A DNA stretch of 64,000 nt from contig OY969557.1 in assembly GCA_963701025.1 (NCBI GenBank), forward strand, positions 640,090 through 704,089. Reading direction: 5' to 3'. The DNA is from an uncultured bacterium. GTDB taxonomy: Bacteria; Patescibacteriota; Minisyncoccia; Phycocordibacterales; PALSA-1337. The notes under the pieces are model-generated. The model saw nothing but the letters and a program-made list of their open reading frames with translations, was not told the DNA's origin and searched no databases. Made by a program: the position numbers and the translations under genes. Of the stretch, positions 1,056 to 22,964 are shown piece after piece (the first letter of the stretch is position 1; each line of letters begins with the position of its first letter).

Positions 1056-1586
1056 ATGAATTACACATTCCTTCCTGAATCCGAACGAAAGAACATCGCG
1101 CGCGATTATCACATCCGCGTGGCCATCGTCGGCTTGTTCTTCCTGTCGCTTGCCTTTCTCGTCGGCGTTGCCGCCCTCTTCCCGGCCTATGTCCATGCCA
1201 TGCTAGAGGAACGCCTTCATCTCAAGGATGTGGCCACGCTCAATCAGACGGGCGGTGCCGAAGCTCTCTCGTCGGCGGAGAACGACCTGTCCGGCAGCGC
1301 CGCGCTCATGTCCGTTCTCTCCGGATCGATCGTGCCGGCGCCATTCTCCTCGACGGTCGAGGACATCGCTTCCGAGAGAGGCGCCGTGGAAGTGAGTTCG
1401 TTCTCCCTTTCGCGGGCTGCGTCGTCAACCTCCATCGTCATAGAGGGGTCGGCACCGACGCGCGCCGCCCTGCTCGCTTTCAAGGATCGTCTGGTCGCCC
1501 TCGCTCCGGGCATATCCGTCAACCTTCCTGTATCGGAGCTAGCCCGCGACACGGATATCCAGTTCTCCATCGAGATCACCGAATAA
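1056..1586 (+). CDS. pilN: PilN-like pilus assembly protein (N-terminal single TM, periplasmic domain)
   Basis: N-terminal xFLPESERK then a hydrophobic helix (IVGLFFLSLAFLVGVAALF), as in PilN INLLP+TM. Lies in the pilM-N-O gene order. The 9-nt gap after pilM suggests an operon. Confidence 0.5.
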   Translation: MNYTFLPESERKNIARDYHIRVAIVGLFFLSLAFLVGVAALFPAYVHAMLEERLHLKDVATLNQTGGAEALSSAENDLSGSAALMSVLSGSIVPAPFSSTVEDIASERGAVEVSSFSLSRAASSTSIVIEGSAPTRAALLAFKDRLVALAPGISVNLPVSELARDTDIQFSIEITE

Positions 1587-1590
1587 GGCC

Positions 1591-2154
1591 ATGAAACATC
1601 CTCACAGCCATATCCCATTCCTCATACTCTCCATCGCCATTTCGGCGACCGTGGTCGCGCTCTATGCCTACATAGTCCATGCCACTGCGGCCTCCGTTCG
1701 CCAAGCGAATCTGGCCCGCGATATCGTGCTCGCCGAGAAATCCGATCAATCGGAATCAGCGACCCTCTCGGGGATCGCTTCTTCCACGGCGCCTTTGCGG
1801 GCTCGCCTGGCATCATTCTTCGTTCCGGCCGACGATGTCGTCGCTTTCATCACGGTGTTGGAGTCCATCGGTCCGCAGTCCGGAAGCGCGGTCTCCATCG
1901 CCTCTATAGACGCCGACTCCCTTGCCGGAAGGCCCGCCGGCACCATAGGCGCGGTCCGCGCGCATATAGACGTTCACGGCGGATGGTCCTCGGTCATGCG
2001 CGCTCTGGCTCTCGCCGAGCGCATGCCTTATGCCGTTTCCATAGATCACGTACAGCTCGATTCTTCGTCGGCCGGCCCCGCTAACGGACGCTCATGGAGC
2101 CTGTCATTCGATATACAGGCGGATATGATCGTCCGGGCGCCGGCCGCTTCTTGA
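1591..2154 (+). CDS. pilO: PilO-like pilus assembly protein
   Basis: Single N-terminal TM (FLILSIAISATVVALYAYIV), about 190 aa, position after pilN. Assigned by synteny only. Confidence 0.4.
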   Translation: MKHPHSHIPFLILSIAISATVVALYAYIVHATAASVRQANLARDIVLAEKSDQSESATLSGIASSTAPLRARLASFFVPADDVVAFITVLESIGPQSGSAVSIASIDADSLAGRPAGTIGAVRAHIDVHGGWSSVMRALALAERMPYAVSIDHVQLDSSSAGPANGRSWSLSFDIQADMIVRAPAAS

Positions 2155-2159
2155 TTCAC

Positions 2160-2459
2160 ATGAAAAGATTATTCCACTTTTGGCATATGATCGGCGACGA
2201 CCCATTCATTGATTGGTCCATCATCCTTGCGCTATCGGTTGTCGCCGCCGCTATCCTCGTAGCCGTCGGGGCCTCCGTATACGTCGATGGCGCCGCGGAG
2301 CTCGCGTCGCCGCCCCAGATCTCCCCTGCGATCAGCCAGGCCTCGCATTTCGACATCCAAAGCCTCGATCGCATCACGGGCGCATTTGACGCCCGTGCCG
2401 CCGAGAGGGTACTGTTAGACAAGGCCTATAGCGGGCCGCCGGATCCGTCCCTCCCGTAG
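2160..2459 (+). CDS. small membrane protein (pilus-cluster associated, hypothetical)
   Basis: Internal start MKRLFHFW. One TM (ILALSVVAAAILVAVGASVYV). The 3' end overlaps the start of the tRNA by about 10 nt, so the true stop may be earlier. Confidence 0.3.
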   Translation: MKRLFHFWHMIGDDPFIDWSIILALSVVAAAILVAVGASVYVDGAAELASPPQISPAISQASHFDIQSLDRITGAFDARAAERVLLDKAYSGPPDPSLP

Positions 2460-2521
2460 TTCAATGGATAGAACAGGAGACTTCTAAGCTCTTGATGGGG
2501 GTTCGATTCCCTCCGGGAGGA
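2450..2521 (+). tRNA. tRNA-Arg (anticodon TCT)
   Basis: Cloverleaf read by eye: acceptor CCTCCCG/CGGGAGG, D-arm GTTC-AATGGATA-GAAC, anticodon loop CTTCTAA, T-arm GGGGG-TTCGATT-CCCTC, discriminator A. One mismatch at the pair closing the anticodon stem. Confidence 0.7.
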
Positions 2522-2643
2522 CAAGTTATCGTTGGGGTGCCTGACGGTTGGAGGGTGTGAATTAGTCGCCATTGCGCGCCTGCGTCGCGTGCTATACTGG
2601 TGGAGGTCACTTTTCTTATCAATTAACAGCTAATTCAATAAAT

Positions 2644-2874
2644 ATGAAAGCAGTACACATGATCGCCTTCATCCTCGTCATCATCGGGGGATTGAACTGG
2701 GGCCTCATCGGCATCAACTCCGGTTGGAATGTCGTCAACCTCATCTTTGGTTCGATCGGATGGCTCGAAAGCCTGATCTACATCTTGGTCGGCCTGTCCG
2801 CCCTCTATCTCGTCTTCACGCACAAGAAGACCTGCAAGAATTGCGACAAGGGCGCCGGAGCTCCGCAGATGTAA
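2644..2874 (+). CDS. DUF378 family small membrane protein
   Basis: Two TM helices with the GGLNWGLIG motif characteristic of DUF378 (YuiB-like). Start chosen at MKAVHMIAFIL. Confidence 0.6.
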   Translation: MKAVHMIAFILVIIGGLNWGLIGINSGWNVVNLIFGSIGWLESLIYILVGLSALYLVFTHKKTCKNCDKGAGAPQM

Positions 2875-19538: not shown

Positions 19539-20183
19539 ATGAGCACCAACATCGATTATTGGGAAAAAGTCTTGGAAAATCCGACGCCTGACTTCAAGGC
19601 TCTTTTCGACGCGGAATTGACTTACATTCGGTCGCGCGTTCCGGGGAATTCCAAAGTTCTCGAGATCGGTTGCGGTAATGGCAGGAATATCAGGTCTATC
19701 GCCGAATTCACGAAGGACATCATCGGAATCGACAACGATCCGAAAGCGGTCGAAGACGCACAGAAGAACCTCGCCGGATTTTCAGGCGTAAAGATAATGC
19801 TGGCCGACGTTCTCGATCTGCCGTTCCCAGATAAATCTTTTGACGTCATGATATTCTTGGATACTCTGGTCAACATGAAAGAAAACAAAGTCCAAGCATT
19901 GAAGGAGATGAGCAGGGTGTTGACGGATGACGGCAAAATAATCATCAGCGTATATTCCGAGGACGCTTTCGATGCGCGCATGGACATTTACAAGATAGTG
20001 AATGCTCCCATAAACAAGACCGAAGGCACGAAAGTCACGTTCGACGAAAGTCTTGCGGCGAATGTATCGGAGCAGTTTAGCAAAGAAGATATAGAAGGTT
20101 TGGCCGATCAGTCTGGATTGAATCTTGTCGATTGTAAAAAAGTGCCAGGAATCGCGTATATTTGTACGCTAGCCAAAAAATAA
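19539..20183 (+). CDS. class I SAM-dependent methyltransferase
   Basis: Motif I VLEIGCGNGRN, motif II acidic IDNDP, motif post-I/III FDVMIF. 214 aa. Confidence 0.8.
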   Translation: MSTNIDYWEKVLENPTPDFKALFDAELTYIRSRVPGNSKVLEIGCGNGRNIRSIAEFTKDIIGIDNDPKAVEDAQKNLAGFSGVKIMLADVLDLPFPDKSFDVMIFLDTLVNMKENKVQALKEMSRVLTDDGKIIISVYSEDAFDARMDIYKIVNAPINKTEGTKVTFDESLAANVSEQFSKEDIEGLADQSGLNLVDCKKVPGIAYICTLAKK

Positions 20184-20246
20184 AACCCGCCTACGGTTAG
20201 AACGTAGTGCGGGTCGTGAATTTGCGTATTACTTCTGGGAACATGA

Positions 20247-20537
20247 TTATCCCCCAAGCTCACTTGCGGTCGGAATGCGCACCGGGAAGGCACATCCGCC
20301 CGGATTATCGCAGACCTTCTCGAAGTTATCGAAGGCAGCCTGCGATTTCGGACCAAGTTTGGTTCGTGCTGGTTTATTGAGTTTTTCGAGATCAGCGCCG
20401 AATTCCTCGATGATCGCCTTTCGCACCTGCTTGAAGCTTTCATTCAGGGCTGTTCGGCGTTCGGCCGTGTAGCCGAACATCATGCTCGAATATTGCTCCT
20501 GGTTTAATTTGATGCAGACGTCGCCTAAGGTAGACAT
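20247..20537 (-). CDS. hypothetical small protein, downstream of membrane transporter gene in same orientation
   Basis: 96 aa ORF, 28 nt after the stop of 20566..20973 on the same strand. Confidence 0.35.
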   Translation of the reverse strand: MSTLGDVCIKLNQEQYSSMMFGYTAERRTALNESFKQVRKAIIEEFGADLEKLNKPARTKLGPKSQAAFDNFEKVCDNPGGCAFPVRIPTASELGG

Positions 20538-20565: not shown

Positions 20566-20973
20566 TTACCGTGTCAGTAATATCGCCGCGGTGAAAGCCA
20601 TGACGAAACCGATGATTTTTGAAGGACTCATACCTCCATTCATGATGGCATAATTCATCGCCGGTATAGTCGTCTGAACGACGATCATAATAACGAACAA
20701 CATGCCAACATTTTCTTTGGTAGCTTTCGCAAGCATACCATTGAAGAACAAAACACCAATAGCTCCAGCAATCCCGGCAGCCGCGACCATTTTCCAATTG
20801 ATTCCATCCATGCTTTTCAATCCGCCAAGAGCGAAAGGAAGGACACAGACAAAGACGATTAGAGAAAAAAAGGCCGATGATACATTTCCCGTCATTTTGC
20901 TCCGATTCATGAAGAGCGGCCATAGTCCAAAGAACACTCCGGCTAGGGCAGCTTTAATTTGCAAACTATTCAT
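20566..20973 (-). CDS. EamA-like / DMT-superfamily half-transporter (4 TM)
   Basis: 135 aa with four hydrophobic helices, Gly-rich TM segments, and DMT/EamA-like spacing. Confidence 0.55.
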   Translation of the reverse strand: MNSLQIKAALAGVFFGLWPLFMNRSKMTGNVSSAFFSLIVFVCVLPFALGGLKSMDGINWKMVAAAGIAGAIGVLFFNGMLAKATKENVGMLFVIMIVVQTTIPAMNYAIMNGGMSPSKIIGFVMAFTAAILLTR

Positions 20974-21010
20974 ATTATTTCCTTGGTTAAGGGTTTGTTG
21001 TCAAAGTTCA

Positions 21011-21076
21011 AACTCTCAGGATTCGCGACATCAGTGTCGTAAACCCAGTTAAGTGGGGAATATTGCTATTCCCCAT
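21011..21076 (-). promoter_or_regulatory. conserved structured 5' leader element, copy 1 (upstream of 20566..20973)
   Basis: Minus-strand transcript: hairpin GGGGAAUAGCAAUAUUCCCC, then CUUAACUGGGUUUACGACACUGAUGUCGCGAAUCCUGAGAGUU. Shares the core with copy 2 at 21577-21650. Confidence 0.45.
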
Positions 21077-21120
21077 GAGCGGTGTTTTGGTAGCCACTTC
21101 ACTACCGCCGGCAGTCAAGA

Positions 21121-21537
21121 CTAACCGGACTTATTCATGATGTAACTCTCGTCAGCCGCCGCATTGAGCTCGTAGGGAGTGTCGAAGAAGAAATCTCCTA
21201 GCTTCTGTCCCTTGACCCAGATTTGGCGTTGCCACGGTTGCTTCTGCACCAAGGCCTTCTCCTGTTCGATGATTCCTTCGTCGAGCGTTGTTTCCTGGTG
21301 ACCGACGATGCGGACGAACCGGAACAGCTTCTTCTCCTTGCCCCAAGGGTCCGGTATTCCGGCTTCCTCGGGAGCGATAATGTAGATGAAGTATTTGGCG
21401 CTCGGCTCGGTGGGTTTGTTTTCCCACCAAGGAACGTCTTGTTCTCCGGCTACACGGATCAGGAGTTGTTTGTTCTGGGCAGTTTGTTGCTTGTCCATTC
21501 CGCGACCATGCGCTCTGATGATTGGCAATCGATTCAT
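21121..21537 (-). CDS. hypothetical protein
   Basis: 138 aa ORF, same strand as and immediately upstream of the EamA-like gene. Each has its own copy of the conserved leader. Confidence 0.45.
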   Translation of the reverse strand: MNRLPIIRAHGRGMDKQQTAQNKQLLIRVAGEQDVPWWENKPTEPSAKYFIYIIAPEEAGIPDPWGKEKKLFRFVRIVGHQETTLDEGIIEQEKALVQKQPWQRQIWVKGQKLGDFFFDTPYELNAAADESYIMNKSG

Positions 21538-21576
21538 TGGTATCTCCTATGGTTGAATTGTTGACTCAAAGAACTG

Positions 21577-21650
21577 AACTCTCAGGATTCGCGACTGAAG
21601 TGTCGTAAATCCAGTTGAGTCGGGAAACGCTGTTTTGAGGCGTTTCCCGA
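21577..21650 (-). promoter_or_regulatory. conserved structured 5' leader element, copy 2 (upstream of 21121..21537)
   Basis: Minus-strand transcript: hairpin UCGGGAAACGC-CUCAAAACA-GCGUUUCCCGA, then CUCAACUGGAUUUACGACACUUCAGUCGCGAAUCCUGAGAGUU. The inner stem CGAC/GUCG has compensatory loop changes relative to copy 1. Confidence 0.45.
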
Positions 21651-21671
21651 TTGAAGCTTACACATCAGCGA

Positions 21672-22067
21672 TCACTTCCGGATGGCGAGTATCGCCCGAT
21701 CATTGTATTCCGATTGGCCGACGGTGGTGGTCGAGTTGGCATGCCATGCTTGGACAAGCCTGACCATCGTGCCGTTGGTTATCGTGTTGTCCGTCGTCAC
21801 CGCGTAGCGAGCATAGCTGTTCGCGTCGGTGGCTTTCGGCGACATGACCCGGACGAGGCTCACACCCTTGCTGTTGGTGATGACCAATGTCACCATCCAA
21901 TCGCCTTCGTCTTTGATGCTCGCGCTCATGGATGCAATATTGTCTTCGGATGTGAATCCGGCCGGTAACGGCGTTCTCGCGCCGACGACTACCGCATAGA
22001 TGACGGCACCGATGACGATATTGATAAGGACGAGCACTACTGCGACTCTAATCATTTCACGTTTCAT
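21672..22067 (-). CDS. hypothetical exported/signal-anchored protein
   Basis: N-terminal hydrophobic helix (IRVAVVLVLINIVIGAVIYAVVV), 131 aa. Confidence 0.45.
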   Translation of the reverse strand: MKREMIRVAVVLVLINIVIGAVIYAVVVGARTPLPAGFTSEDNIASMSASIKDEGDWMVTLVITNSKGVSLVRVMSPKATDANSYARYAVTTDNTITNGTMVRLVQAWHANSTTTVGQSEYNDRAILAIRK

Positions 22068-22373
22068 AGTTTTTCTCCATTTGATTGTTTACTGCAGTTG
22101 CGATTCCCTAAGTTAAATTGTTTGCCTAAATGGGGAACCGATTTCTACAGTAAACAGAAGTGATTACCTTTTAAAGAGCTTACCTGTTAAGTATAGCATA
22201 CCACAACATAAAAGTCAATAGCTGTCCAATTTTCTAGTGGCTCTACCAAGCCATGGAAATAGACCGAATCTAAGCCAAATTAAAGAGTTTGTGGCTCACC
22301 GGAATCAGTCTGTGGCTCAATCCAACCGTTTGAGGCACAAGGATTTAAACGCTGACAGTGATAGAATGACTAA

Positions 22374-22964
22374 ATGGACGATGAAAACACTCAAAATGTG
22401 CCAGCTCCAGAACCGTCTACGCCTGGGCCTGAACCTGCTCCGGAGGAGTCTGTTGCAGCAATAATTCCTGAACCAGTGACACCTTCAGAGCAATCAGCGG
22501 CTGAAAGTACTTCTGTTGACCCGGTGGCGCAGGCGGAGCCTGTGACTGAACCAGTGCCAATCACTGAACCAACATCTGATCAAGAATCAACTCCTGTGTC
22601 CGCGCCGGCGGCACAAACGCCGACGGAGCCGTGGACGCAATCGCCGGCGCAATCGCCACAAGCTCCGATATCTGCGCCGTCAACGCCAGTAGTACCTCAA
22701 ACTCCACCAACTTTCACTCAATCAACTCAATTTCGTGACATCCAAGCTCATGGACGCATTAAAATCCAAGAGCACAGACAGAATAAGTTAGAAAAGATCA
22801 TCGAATATGCGCAGAAGAAGCAAACCATCACCAACGACGAAGTCCAGAAGCTCGTGCGCGTCTCCGACGCTACAGCCACCAGATATTTGGTCGATTTAGT
22901 AAAGCAAGGTCGTCTGGTCCGTGAAGGATCCCCGCGACATGCGATATATCGATTTGTGCGCTGA
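22374..22964 (+). CDS. Pro/Thr/Glu-rich low-complexity protein with C-terminal winged-helix DNA-binding domain
   Basis: First 120 aa are PEPxP/T-rich. The last 60 aa (ITNDEVQKLVRVSDATATRYLVDLVKQGRLVREG) resemble a wHTH. Flanked on both sides by GTGGCTCAATCCAACCG-ATTGAGCCAC hairpin motifs. Confidence 0.5.
   Translation: MDDENTQNVPAPEPSTPGPEPAPEESVAAIIPEPVTPSEQSAAESTSVDPVAQAEPVTEPVPITEPTSDQESTPVSAPAAQTPTEPWTQSPAQSPQAPISAPSTPVVPQTPPTFTQSTQFRDIQAHGRIKIQEHRQNKLEKIIEYAQKKQTITNDEVQKLVRVSDATATRYLVDLVKQGRLVREGSPRHAIYRFVR

Follow-up and report, generated by a model that had tools for sequence, protein, structure and literature searches.

The leaders and spacers of the ribosomal RNA (rRNA) operons (rrn) of Escherichia coli carry a boxB-like hairpin, BoxA and boxC in this order (PMC6614801), on which the complex rrnTAC with NusA, NusB, NusE, NusG, S4 and SuhB is built. 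BoxA reads UGCUCUUUAACA in the E. coli rrn operons and GGCUCCUUGGCA in Aquifex, and NusB/NusE reads its nucleotides 1-8, in E. coli UGCUCUUU (PMC3177189); the consensus GYTCTTTAANA is gamma-proteobacterial (PMC5725501). The nut site of phage lambda (BoxA, spacer, boxB, with the N protein) is likewise a bipartite RNA signal of a linear BoxA and a hairpin, and gives terminator read-through (PMC6614801; PMC3177189). BoxA is already known outside rRNA as well, namely as a promoter-near leader motif that controls premature termination or expression of suhB (5' untranslated region) and other gamma-proteobacterial genes (PMC5725501) and in CRISPR leaders (PMC7665894). Here we describe a repeated leader element, consisting of a conserved hairpin and a BoxA-like motif, from a 64,000-nucleotide (nt) stretch of an uncultured member of the Patescibacteriota (contig OY969557.1, positions 640,090 to 704,089, in the following the window). 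It occurs there twice, ahead of the genes for a 138-amino acid (aa) orphan protein and for an EamA-like transporter, and may function as an rrn-type, nut-like signal of the Nus/BoxA type, a reading for which we see even chances judging from the sequence.

The element shares with the E. coli rrn signal a hairpin and, a few nt further on, the linear motif G-Y-U-C-U-U-U-R on the transcribed sense strand, both at the transcript start and again in internal spacers. It differs in preceding translated orphan genes instead of rRNA, in a sequence-conserved hairpin base, in the lack of a recognised boxC, in internal copies that abut a further hairpin without U-tract, and in that the Nus factors are here putative ligands. 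BoxA of suhB and of the CRISPR leaders is single and promoter-proximal, whereas the element of these Patescibacteria is reiterated between cistrons and combined with a covarying hairpin and cassette exchange. Compared to lambda nut it is hairpin-first and chromosomal, and no N-like protein is known. ORFan-shuffling intergenic motifs are already known from T4-like phages, in which the PeSLs, conserved composite motifs of ~100 bp with a GC stem-loop, flank ORFans in hyperplastic regions and bring about modular cassette shuffling (PMC2839356; PMC4122927). However, PeSLs are phage elements with a sigma-70 promoter in each unit, while the element here resides on a bacterial chromosome with promoters only at the operon heads; a promoter scan detected no -35/-10 pair within or after the internal units. 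A small conserved hairpin also recruits an elongation factor for processive antitermination in the LoaP-dependent leaders of Firmicutes polyketide operons, which lack BoxA, have a single copy in each operon and are accompanied by a nearby gene for a dedicated NusG paralogue; this layout is not seen with the element described here. In the literature searched, BoxA was not mentioned together with Saccharibacteria or Patescibacteria. We regard as new the combination of a covarying hairpin and BoxA, reiterated between cistrons and abutting the 3' hairpin of the previous gene, in chromosomal orphan-gene operons of Patescibacteria.

A duplicated structured leader ahead of the 138-aa and the EamA-like genes had been described in an initial annotation of the window, and both copies are indeed present on the minus strand. 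They share 78% identity over 134 aligned columns and are near-identical over a 45-nt core, while each opens, as had also been noted, with a GC hairpin of its own (HP1-A and HP1-B, Table 1). The tail of copy A runs to the ATG at 21537 and that of copy B to the ATG at 20973. The 17-mer AACTGGRTTTACGACAC from the core occurs twice in the 64 kb, compared to 0.2 expected occurrences, and both leader regions fold far better than their shuffles (z about -4). With the covariance model of the family described below only copies A and B were detected in the window, also with the filters off. The window region yielded no match in Rfam 15 at gathering or at E up to 10, in agreement with the annotated lack of a known class, and the view that the minus-strand transcript carries a structured RNA element acting in cis is supported.

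Further instances were collected from other genomes (loci designated by L numbers), the first by protein-guided look-ups and then by pattern scans of GTDB species genomes, metagenomes and IMG/VR. The pattern was present in 7 contigs of GTDB species genomes, four of them Candidatus Saccharibacteria and the others uncultured metagenome-assembled genomes, and in 34 metagenome contigs, of which six (L013, L018, L022, L023, L025 and L033) were discarded as chance matches in a short-chain-dehydrogenase-like coding region (GGATTTACGAYGGCAARGAGTTCGCGAATCCACCGAGTT). The viral, phage and plasmid collections IMG/VR, INPHARED and PLSDB contained no match to it. A covariance model built on 33 copies recovered further divergent ones, giving 43 hits or 41 distinct copies from 30 non-redundant sources, all of them contigs of the Saccharibacteria type. 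Since the pattern scans fixed parts of the motif, the first 33 copies are to some extent bound to be invariant there; the divergent model-found copies and the promoter-proximal motifs are free of this bias. Rfam at gathering returned only tRNAs and noise for 35 loci. The existence of a structured RNA family that is absent from Rfam, with 41 copies and 7 covarying pairs, is well supported, and the further instances with covariation that the initial annotation had asked for do exist.

All 43 copies lie in sense orientation between two same-strand open reading frames (ORFs), one per gene and 24 to ~200 nt ahead of the start codon, with up to three per operon; a repeat of the REP/MITE type was rejected on the basis of this arrangement. 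L003, L005, L014 and L015 contain arrays in which two or three small genes on the same strand each have a copy of their own. In L003 and L004 the orthologue of the 138-aa orphan also has the element ahead of it; behind this gene come a second copy, which precedes a different gene of 98 aa, and farther along a third, divergent one. Two copies deviate in their build: L031 (2330-2440, minus strand) and L029 (584-700, plus strand) carry a ~60-nt insert after GAGUU, behind which L031 has the 3' half of the hairpin once more (CGCGGAUUCAUAGAAUU), succeeded by GCUCUUUAA, so that the module itself can be interrupted or partly duplicated.

The conserved hairpin, 43 nt long in the window copies, has a stem of 11-12 bp and adopts the fold ACUY / 4-nt internal loop / GGRUYU / A.C / CGAY(N) / loop / (N)RUCG / GRAUCC / 3-nt internal loop / RAGU. 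In the model-based alignment the main helix is 98% paired, with two-sided pairing-preserving changes at 7 of its 11 pairs. None of 500 shuffles reached the observed covariation values, pairing falls to 20-48% in the control in which the partner was slid by 1-3 columns, and RNAalifold obtained the same fold from an unfitted MAFFT alignment. In divergent copies whole blocks are swapped, e.g. CGAC/GUCG to CAAC/GUUG or UGAUC/GAUCG, and GGAUUU/GAAUCC to GAGUCU/GGAUUC. The loop is free in sequence and in length (4-10 nt) and is mostly a tetraloop, including GAAA, GUAA and UUCG. G-U pairs are found at three positions on the gene strand only, hairpin B of the window having two more of them than hairpin A. 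Since these G-U pairs are confined to one strand and the loop varies in length, selection appears to act on the folded transcript and not on a double-stranded operator. For the same reasons, and with internal copies that lack promoters, a double-stranded DNA operator for a dimeric repressor was rejected.

Two details of the annotated structure have to be revised. The compensatory change reported for the inner stem of the two window copies turned out to be one-sided (A.A versus A-U), and genuine compensatory changes become visible only once the alignment includes other genomes. Across the family, the outer stem register CUCA/UGAG is just 76% paired, and two of its pairs are broken in ~45% of the copies; the alternative register ACUY/RAGU is 98% paired and never covaries. 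As far as the alignment tells, the lower stem ACUY/RAGU is conserved sequence and not a proven helix. Resemblances to a K-turn, to a hammerhead core (CUGAUG in copy B) and to a tRNA-like minihelix (HP1 with T-loop-like loops) were dismissed, being restricted to some copies or inconsistent in geometry. The same applies to an alternative promoter (a TTTACGACAC stretch recalling the T7/SP6 type; sigma-54 and extracytoplasmic function patterns by eye), since the stem covaries rather than keeping its sequence and an ordinary promoter lies just upstream in L017.

The most conserved single-stranded stretch of the family is the tail motif A-G-Y-U-C-U-U-U-R-A, which begins 3 nt past the hairpin and is followed by A-rich sequence. 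Among 34 copies, position 1 is A in 28, position 2 G in 34, position 3 U or C in 31, position 4 U in 32, position 5 C in 34, positions 6 and 7 U in 33 each, position 8 U in 34 and position 9 G or A in 32. At least eight of the nine positions of GYTCTTTRA are matched in 32 of the 41 copies, 19 of which are perfect, and the spacing to the hairpin is exactly 3 nt in 25 of the 32. Pairing of this U-rich tail with the ribosome-binding site in an anti-Shine-Dalgarno manner was only weak and at variable distance.

The motif is also found without the hairpin, 9-16 nt past the -10 box of sigma-70 promoters of element-bearing operons. In the window this promoter-proximal motif lies in the context AGCUCUUUAAAA, 10 of 12 nt of which are identical to the E. 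coli rrn BoxA. The three matches to GYTCTTTRA in the window equal the chance expectation; two of them are inside this one operon. Among all loci examined, GYTCTTT follows 8 of 172 promoter-like sites, compared to a mean of 0.9 for 210 motif permutations, and the count of 8 was reached only by overlapping shifts of the same motif. Besides the window, a promoter with BoxA heads the arrays in L007/L019, L008, L009, L015, L024 and L032; in L014 such a site lies at the contig end, downstream of the three copies of that contig.

Upstream, the conserved hairpin abuts HP1, a perfect hairpin of 7-13 bp with arbitrary sequence and a mean folding energy of -13.7 kcal/mol. In 41 of the 42 copies with enough upstream sequence, HP1 either ends exactly at the conserved A1, i.e. 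0 nt ahead of it, or pairs with it. It is followed by ACUCAACU or ACUUAACU, with 2-4 U in 8 nt and no U-tract. HP1 was considered as an intrinsic terminator, for which the GC-rich hairpin is present, but the U-tract is missing and the terminator scan was empty at these positions. The ends of the operons have canonical terminators with a U-tract, so that HP1 is a signal of a different kind. In the strain variant L046, a different upstream gene and a different HP1 are joined to a core and a 138-aa gene identical to those of the window; because gene and HP1 change together, HP1 seems to belong to the cassette of the upstream gene. The sole exception to the junction is L017, in which HP1 and the ACUY strand are missing and a TTGACA-18-TACAAT promoter lies 17 nt ahead of the main hairpin, an arrangement that puts the element inside the transcript, so that it is no promoter in its own right. 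The gene behind this only promoter-proximal hairpin-BoxA copy (L017 817-1395, minus strand) encodes a 193-aa protein with a region like the C-terminal domain of RNA polymerase alpha (PF03118, E=5e-15). One HP1 family (GGAGCAAGGUCCUAUCCCUUGCUCC, sites in Table 1) has a 7-nt loop and a stem that together resemble a tRNA T-arm/acceptor minihelix; the other HP1 families are unlike it.

The 29 different downstream proteins are mutually unrelated, 27 of them without Pfam family and 28 without PHROG. The proposal of a small co-regulated set around an exporter is not sustained by this, the exporter being merely one of these proteins. Its gene occurs both with and without the element, the orthologues in L001 and L002 having an ordinary TTGACN-17-TATAAT promoter instead. 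The 138-aa gene is followed by the transporter gene in the window, by a 98-aa gene in L003 and by a 131-aa gene in L011, and the gene ahead of it differs between the window, L046 and L003. In L011 it opens an operon, behind a promoter of its own, a degenerate BoxA and a further hairpin module, and homology to the window begins only 16 nt ahead of the ATG. Its 3' trailer is the same in L003, L004, L011 and L046, with the gene that comes next differing in each case, and related trailers are present in L008, L012, L030, L039 and L045. Other hairpins are conserved as modules too and reappear ahead of HP1 as well as in the interval from BoxA to the ribosome-binding site. Leaders and trailers thus read as mosaics of shared modules, with genes that apparently move as cassettes and exchange at several module boundaries. 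The neighbourhoods of the arrays are chromosomal (MurJ, LepA, tRNAs, a TrmB-like helix-turn-helix (HTH) protein, orphans). An origin from phages or plasmids was rejected, as IMG/VR, INPHARED and PLSDB gave no match and PHROGs are nearly empty for the cassette genes.

Some of the recurring modules can be described individually. The trailer GGUAGUGAAGUGGUUACC(U)AAAACACCRCUCA ahead of HP1 (window 21076-21120, minus strand; L003 1724-1760) contains a small hairpin AGUGGU...ACCACU that covaries; in some genes the trailer overlaps the last codons and the stop codon, and unrelated proteins there share the C-terminus ...SEV(I/S)T. The leader module GGCUUUAAGCAGGUGCGCCUUUGAGCACCAG (hairpin GGUGC...GCACC, Table 1) recurs in front of unrelated genes, in the stretch that links BoxA to the ribosome-binding site, and lies in L011 in a promoter-proximal leader without the main hairpin. 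A second module is a ~55-nt hairpin GUUUAAAGUGACUUCGAGAAA...UUUUCGAAGUCGCUUUAAAC directly past BoxA (Table 1), and a third, UUCGUCAUAGCAGA...UCUGCUAUGACGAA, was observed in L003 (1845-1895), L015 and L035. L009 (~2340-2760, minus strand) and L024 (~1560-2000, minus strand) share a conserved noncoding region that is 81% identical between both loci. It consists of two hairpins, GUUCUUUGA or GUUCUUUAA, ~250 nt without conserved ORF and a long hairpin with a U-tract at its end. The region has no match in Rfam at E up to 1 and may represent a small RNA with its own BoxA-like leader. In L005, a gene for a large serine recombinase (793-2458; Resolvase, Recombinase and Zn-ribbon domains) lies beside a tRNA gene and ~4 kb from the three-copy array, which may be bordered by an integrated element; the recombinase was not seen at the other arrays inspected.

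Taking the observed anatomy, covariation, motif match with its positions, and cassette exchange together, we propose that BoxA, once it emerges in the nascent RNA, recruits NusB along with ribosomal protein S10 (NusE), AGUUCUUUGAGU being the putative NusB-S10 target in Saccharibacteria. Together with NusA and NusG this would render RNA polymerase pause- and termination-resistant, and the modified polymerase could read through the HP1 hairpins and through factor-dependent termination within the foreign-looking orphan genes. The signal would be re-supplied after each HP1, in each spacer, as in the leader and spacers of the E. coli rRNA operons, with which the hairpin-then-BoxA order agrees. Gene, 5' hairpin-BoxA leader and 3' HP1 would then form a portable expression cassette, and the conserved modules may double as homology patches for cassette exchange between genomes. 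For the cultivated Saccharibacterium Southlakia epibionticum, the parts of the published tables available to us annotate NusA, NusB and NusG and list NusB as ES/GD (essential or growth-defect) across the transposon sequencing columns (PMC10633639).

Several points weigh against this proposal. In the same parts of the S. epibionticum gene tables, Rho and SuhB were not found (PMC10633639), and an absence of Rho, if real, would blur what is antiterminated. Since cyanobacteria, which lack Rho, keep BoxA conserved upstream of their CRISPR arrays, a missing Rho would not exclude a BoxA function (PMC7665894). A tblastn search for nus and rho genes in the window and the fetched loci was negative, which is uninformative for such genome fragments. 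The tail motif matches the BoxA of E. coli and other gamma-proteobacteria, while the rRNA BoxA of the lineage itself may differ; no rRNA genes were detected with Rfam in the window or the fetched loci. The motif is degenerate in ~20% of the copies, including copy B of the window (GAACUUUGA), and with just 8 nt the match to BoxA could be convergent. No conserved GU-rich element that would correspond to boxC follows BoxA, but A-rich sequence or other hairpin modules. A boxC is not known to be a universal part of such signals. What is known of rrn boxB offers no explanation for a hairpin base that is conserved in sequence (ACUY, internal loop, GAGU), and translated genes usually do not need antitermination. 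Finally, the effect may be of either sign, as BoxA represses suhB in E. coli (PMC5725501).

The exact junction between HP1 and ACUY, together with L017, is accounted for best by an intercistronic site for RNA processing and stability, which is compatible with a BoxA function. An endoribonuclease would cut at this junction or in the internal loop; HP1 would guard the upstream mRNA at its 3' end, the conserved hairpin would shield the downstream mRNA at its 5' end from 5'-to-3' decay, and the U-rich tail would serve translation. Intercistronic spacers that undergo processing, e.g. the RNase III sites of T7, typically contain two stable hairpins side by side, and the only copy without HP1 and ACUY strand starts at a promoter, where no processing is needed. 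However, processing accounts neither for the match of the tail to BoxA nor for the lone tail motif that sits right past promoters and a long way ahead of the start codon (~105 nt in the window), and a stem of 11-12 bp is short for a classical RNase III site, so that we consider it possible but on the whole unlikely. An operator for an RNA-binding regulator other than NusB/S10, e.g. a LoaP-type NusG paralogue or a translational repressor or activator of an orphan-gene regulon, would agree with a hairpin whose base is conserved in sequence (ACUY, A6, U8, A48, GAGU), whose upper stem covaries and whose loop is free, as is typical of protein-recognised hairpins, and with many copies per lineage ahead of unrelated genes. 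We regard it as distinctly unlikely, since no candidate factor is consistently located beside the arrays (MurJ, LepA, TrmB-like HTH, a serine recombinase and orphans are) and, of the single-stranded parts, the BoxA-like motif varies least and is present at promoters also without the hairpin.

Cassette exchange is the starting point of two further explanations. Saccharibacteria-like bacteria could maintain a chromosomal platform of portable orphan-gene cassettes, each bounded by a precise hairpin/ACUY junction, bringing along its own antitermination signal and moved by a dedicated hairpin-recognising mechanism on the level of single-stranded DNA or RNA; such a platform would be integron-like in function but mechanistically unrelated, with Nus antitermination standing in for the cassette promoter, and appears very doubtful to us. 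The varied neighbours of the 138-aa gene, the transporter with and without the element and cassettes that are ORFans would also fit a mere scaffold for recombination on the DNA level, be it PeSL-like homology patches or attC-like sites of a hairpin-recognising recombinase, without any role of a regulatory RNA. Yet G-U pairs specific to the sense strand and helix-preserving covariation point to selection on the folded strand, every copy has the orientation of its gene, a RYYYAAC/GTTRRRY box pair and an adjacent integrase are lacking, and breakpoints at several module boundaries (in L011 16 nt ahead of the ATG) fit homologous exchange as a by-product, which leaves the scaffold highly improbable. 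As in integrons, a structured element is located between promoter-less, same-strand and mostly orphan cassettes, with short outer stem, internal loop, inner stem and variable tip. An attC site was nevertheless rejected: the AAC triplet varies (AAC, TAT, AAT, TAC, AAA, CAT), GTT is constant but continues with CAG, TAG or TGA, the R' purines and extrahelical bases are absent, the sense strand folds, homology continues past GTT, and no intI lies beside the arrays inspected. Hardly credible is the riboswitch or ligand-responsive attenuator for the exporter and its neighbours that the initial annotation had favoured. A conserved, structured and covarying 5' element without Rfam match ahead of a small transporter of the drug/metabolite transporter (DMT)/EamA type would be in line with it, but the downstream genes have no common function, an operon may contain several copies, and transporter orthologues are often without the element. 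In addition, the element is a plain hairpin with variable loop, neither a U-tract terminator nor a demonstrable Shine-Dalgarno-sequestering platform follows, and unrelated inserts occur within the 24 to ~200 nt to the start codon.

In the window, the minus strand appears to form one ~2-kb operon of four small genes with one sigma-70 promoter and one canonical terminator (Table 1). The transporter has 52 homologues, several of them with a precomputed PF00892 match. The first ~20 nt of the coding sequences for the 138-aa and the EamA-like proteins (21517-21537 and 20953-20973, minus strand) are similar (ATGAATCGATTGCCAATCATC versus ATGAATAGTTTGCAAATTAAA), and both proteins start with MN.L.I. For two otherwise unrelated genes this may reflect homology or a translation-initiation preference that reaches into the ORFs. 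Divergent from the operon lies a gene (22374-22964, plus strand) for a 196-aa protein with a long, low-complexity N-terminus rich in Pro, Thr, Ser and Glu and a C-terminal winged-helix/DUF977-like HTH, which could be a local regulator.

Table 1. Features of the minus-strand operon of the window, and sites of recurring modules in other loci
Feature	Positions	Strand	Basis or remark
Sigma-70-type promoter: TTGACT 22218-22213, 17 nt, TATACT 22195-22190, TG ahead of -10	22190..22218	-	Promoter scan, 10/12 matches, and sequence
Promoter-proximal BoxA-like motif GCUCUUUAA	22171..22179	-	9/9 to GYTCTTTRA; 10 nt past -10 box, ~105 nt ahead of first start codon
Gene 1: 131-aa orphan, N-terminal membrane anchor, no Pfam family	21672..22067	-	ORF list
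HP1-A: perfect 10-11-bp GC-rich hairpin CGGGAAACGC...GCGUUUCCCG, without U-tract, abuts conserved hairpin A	21621..21649	-	Folding
Conserved hairpin A (boxB-like): ACUC / AACU / GGAUUU A CGAC-loop-GUCG C GAAUCC / UGA / GAGU	21578..21620	-	Covariance model 73 bits, E=1e-15; covariation; RNAalifold
BoxA-like motif A GUUCUUUGA, 3 nt past hairpin A	21566..21574	-	9/9 to GYTCTTTRA
Gene 2: 138-aa orphan, no Pfam family	21121..21537	-	One homologous cluster only among 5.8 billion proteins
Conserved 3' trailer of the 138-aa cassette, UCUUGACUGCCGGCGGUAGUGAAGUGGCUACCAAAACACCGCUCA	21076..21120	-	Found with the gene in other genomes
HP1-B: perfect 8-9-bp hairpin GGGGAAUA-GCAA-UAUUCCCC, without U-tract, abuts conserved hairpin B	21055..21074	-	Folding
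Conserved hairpin B (boxB-like): ACUU / AACU / GGGUUU A CGACA-CUGA-UGUCG C GAAUCC / UGA / GAGU	21012..21054	-	Covariance model 66.8 bits, E=5e-14
Degenerate BoxA-like motif B GAACUUUGA	21001..21009	-	7/9 to GYTCTTTRA; same variant in the L007 transporter orthologue
Gene 3: 135-aa four-helix EamA-like (DMT half-size) membrane protein	20566..20973	-	Pfam EamA E=6e-4, below curated cut-off
Gene 4: 96-aa orphan, 28 nt past gene 3, no element ahead	20247..20537	-	ORF list, sequence
Canonical intrinsic terminator at operon end: 11-bp GC hairpin and UUUUAUUUUUU	20175..20213	-	Fold -18.5 kcal/mol, z=-3.8
HP1 family GGAGCAAGGUCCUAUCCCUUGCUCC	L015 6010-6036 (-); L036; L044 6200-6228 (-); L005 7667-7693; upstream in L029/L032
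Leader module GGCUUUAAGCAGGUGCGCCUUUGAGCACCAG	L010 70-110; L029 1180-1215; L036, L015, L009, L024, L032, L034, L012; L011 1600-1640 (-)
Second leader module GUUUAAAGUGACUUCGAGAAA...UUUUCGAAGUCGCUUUAAAC	L005 7095-7160; L008 4715-4775; L016, L028, L039; L032 ~2030-1975 (-)

If the BoxA reading is true, Patescibacteria would make systematic use of antitermination by Nus factors, classically a device of rRNA operons and phages, in operons that code for proteins, with the signal repeated from cistron to cistron and each gene carrying it along as part of a portable unit. How these ultrasmall symbionts express their many orphan genes and exchange them between genomes would thereby become accessible to concrete tests. 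Whatever its function, the element suggests which form BoxA takes in a little-studied phylum.

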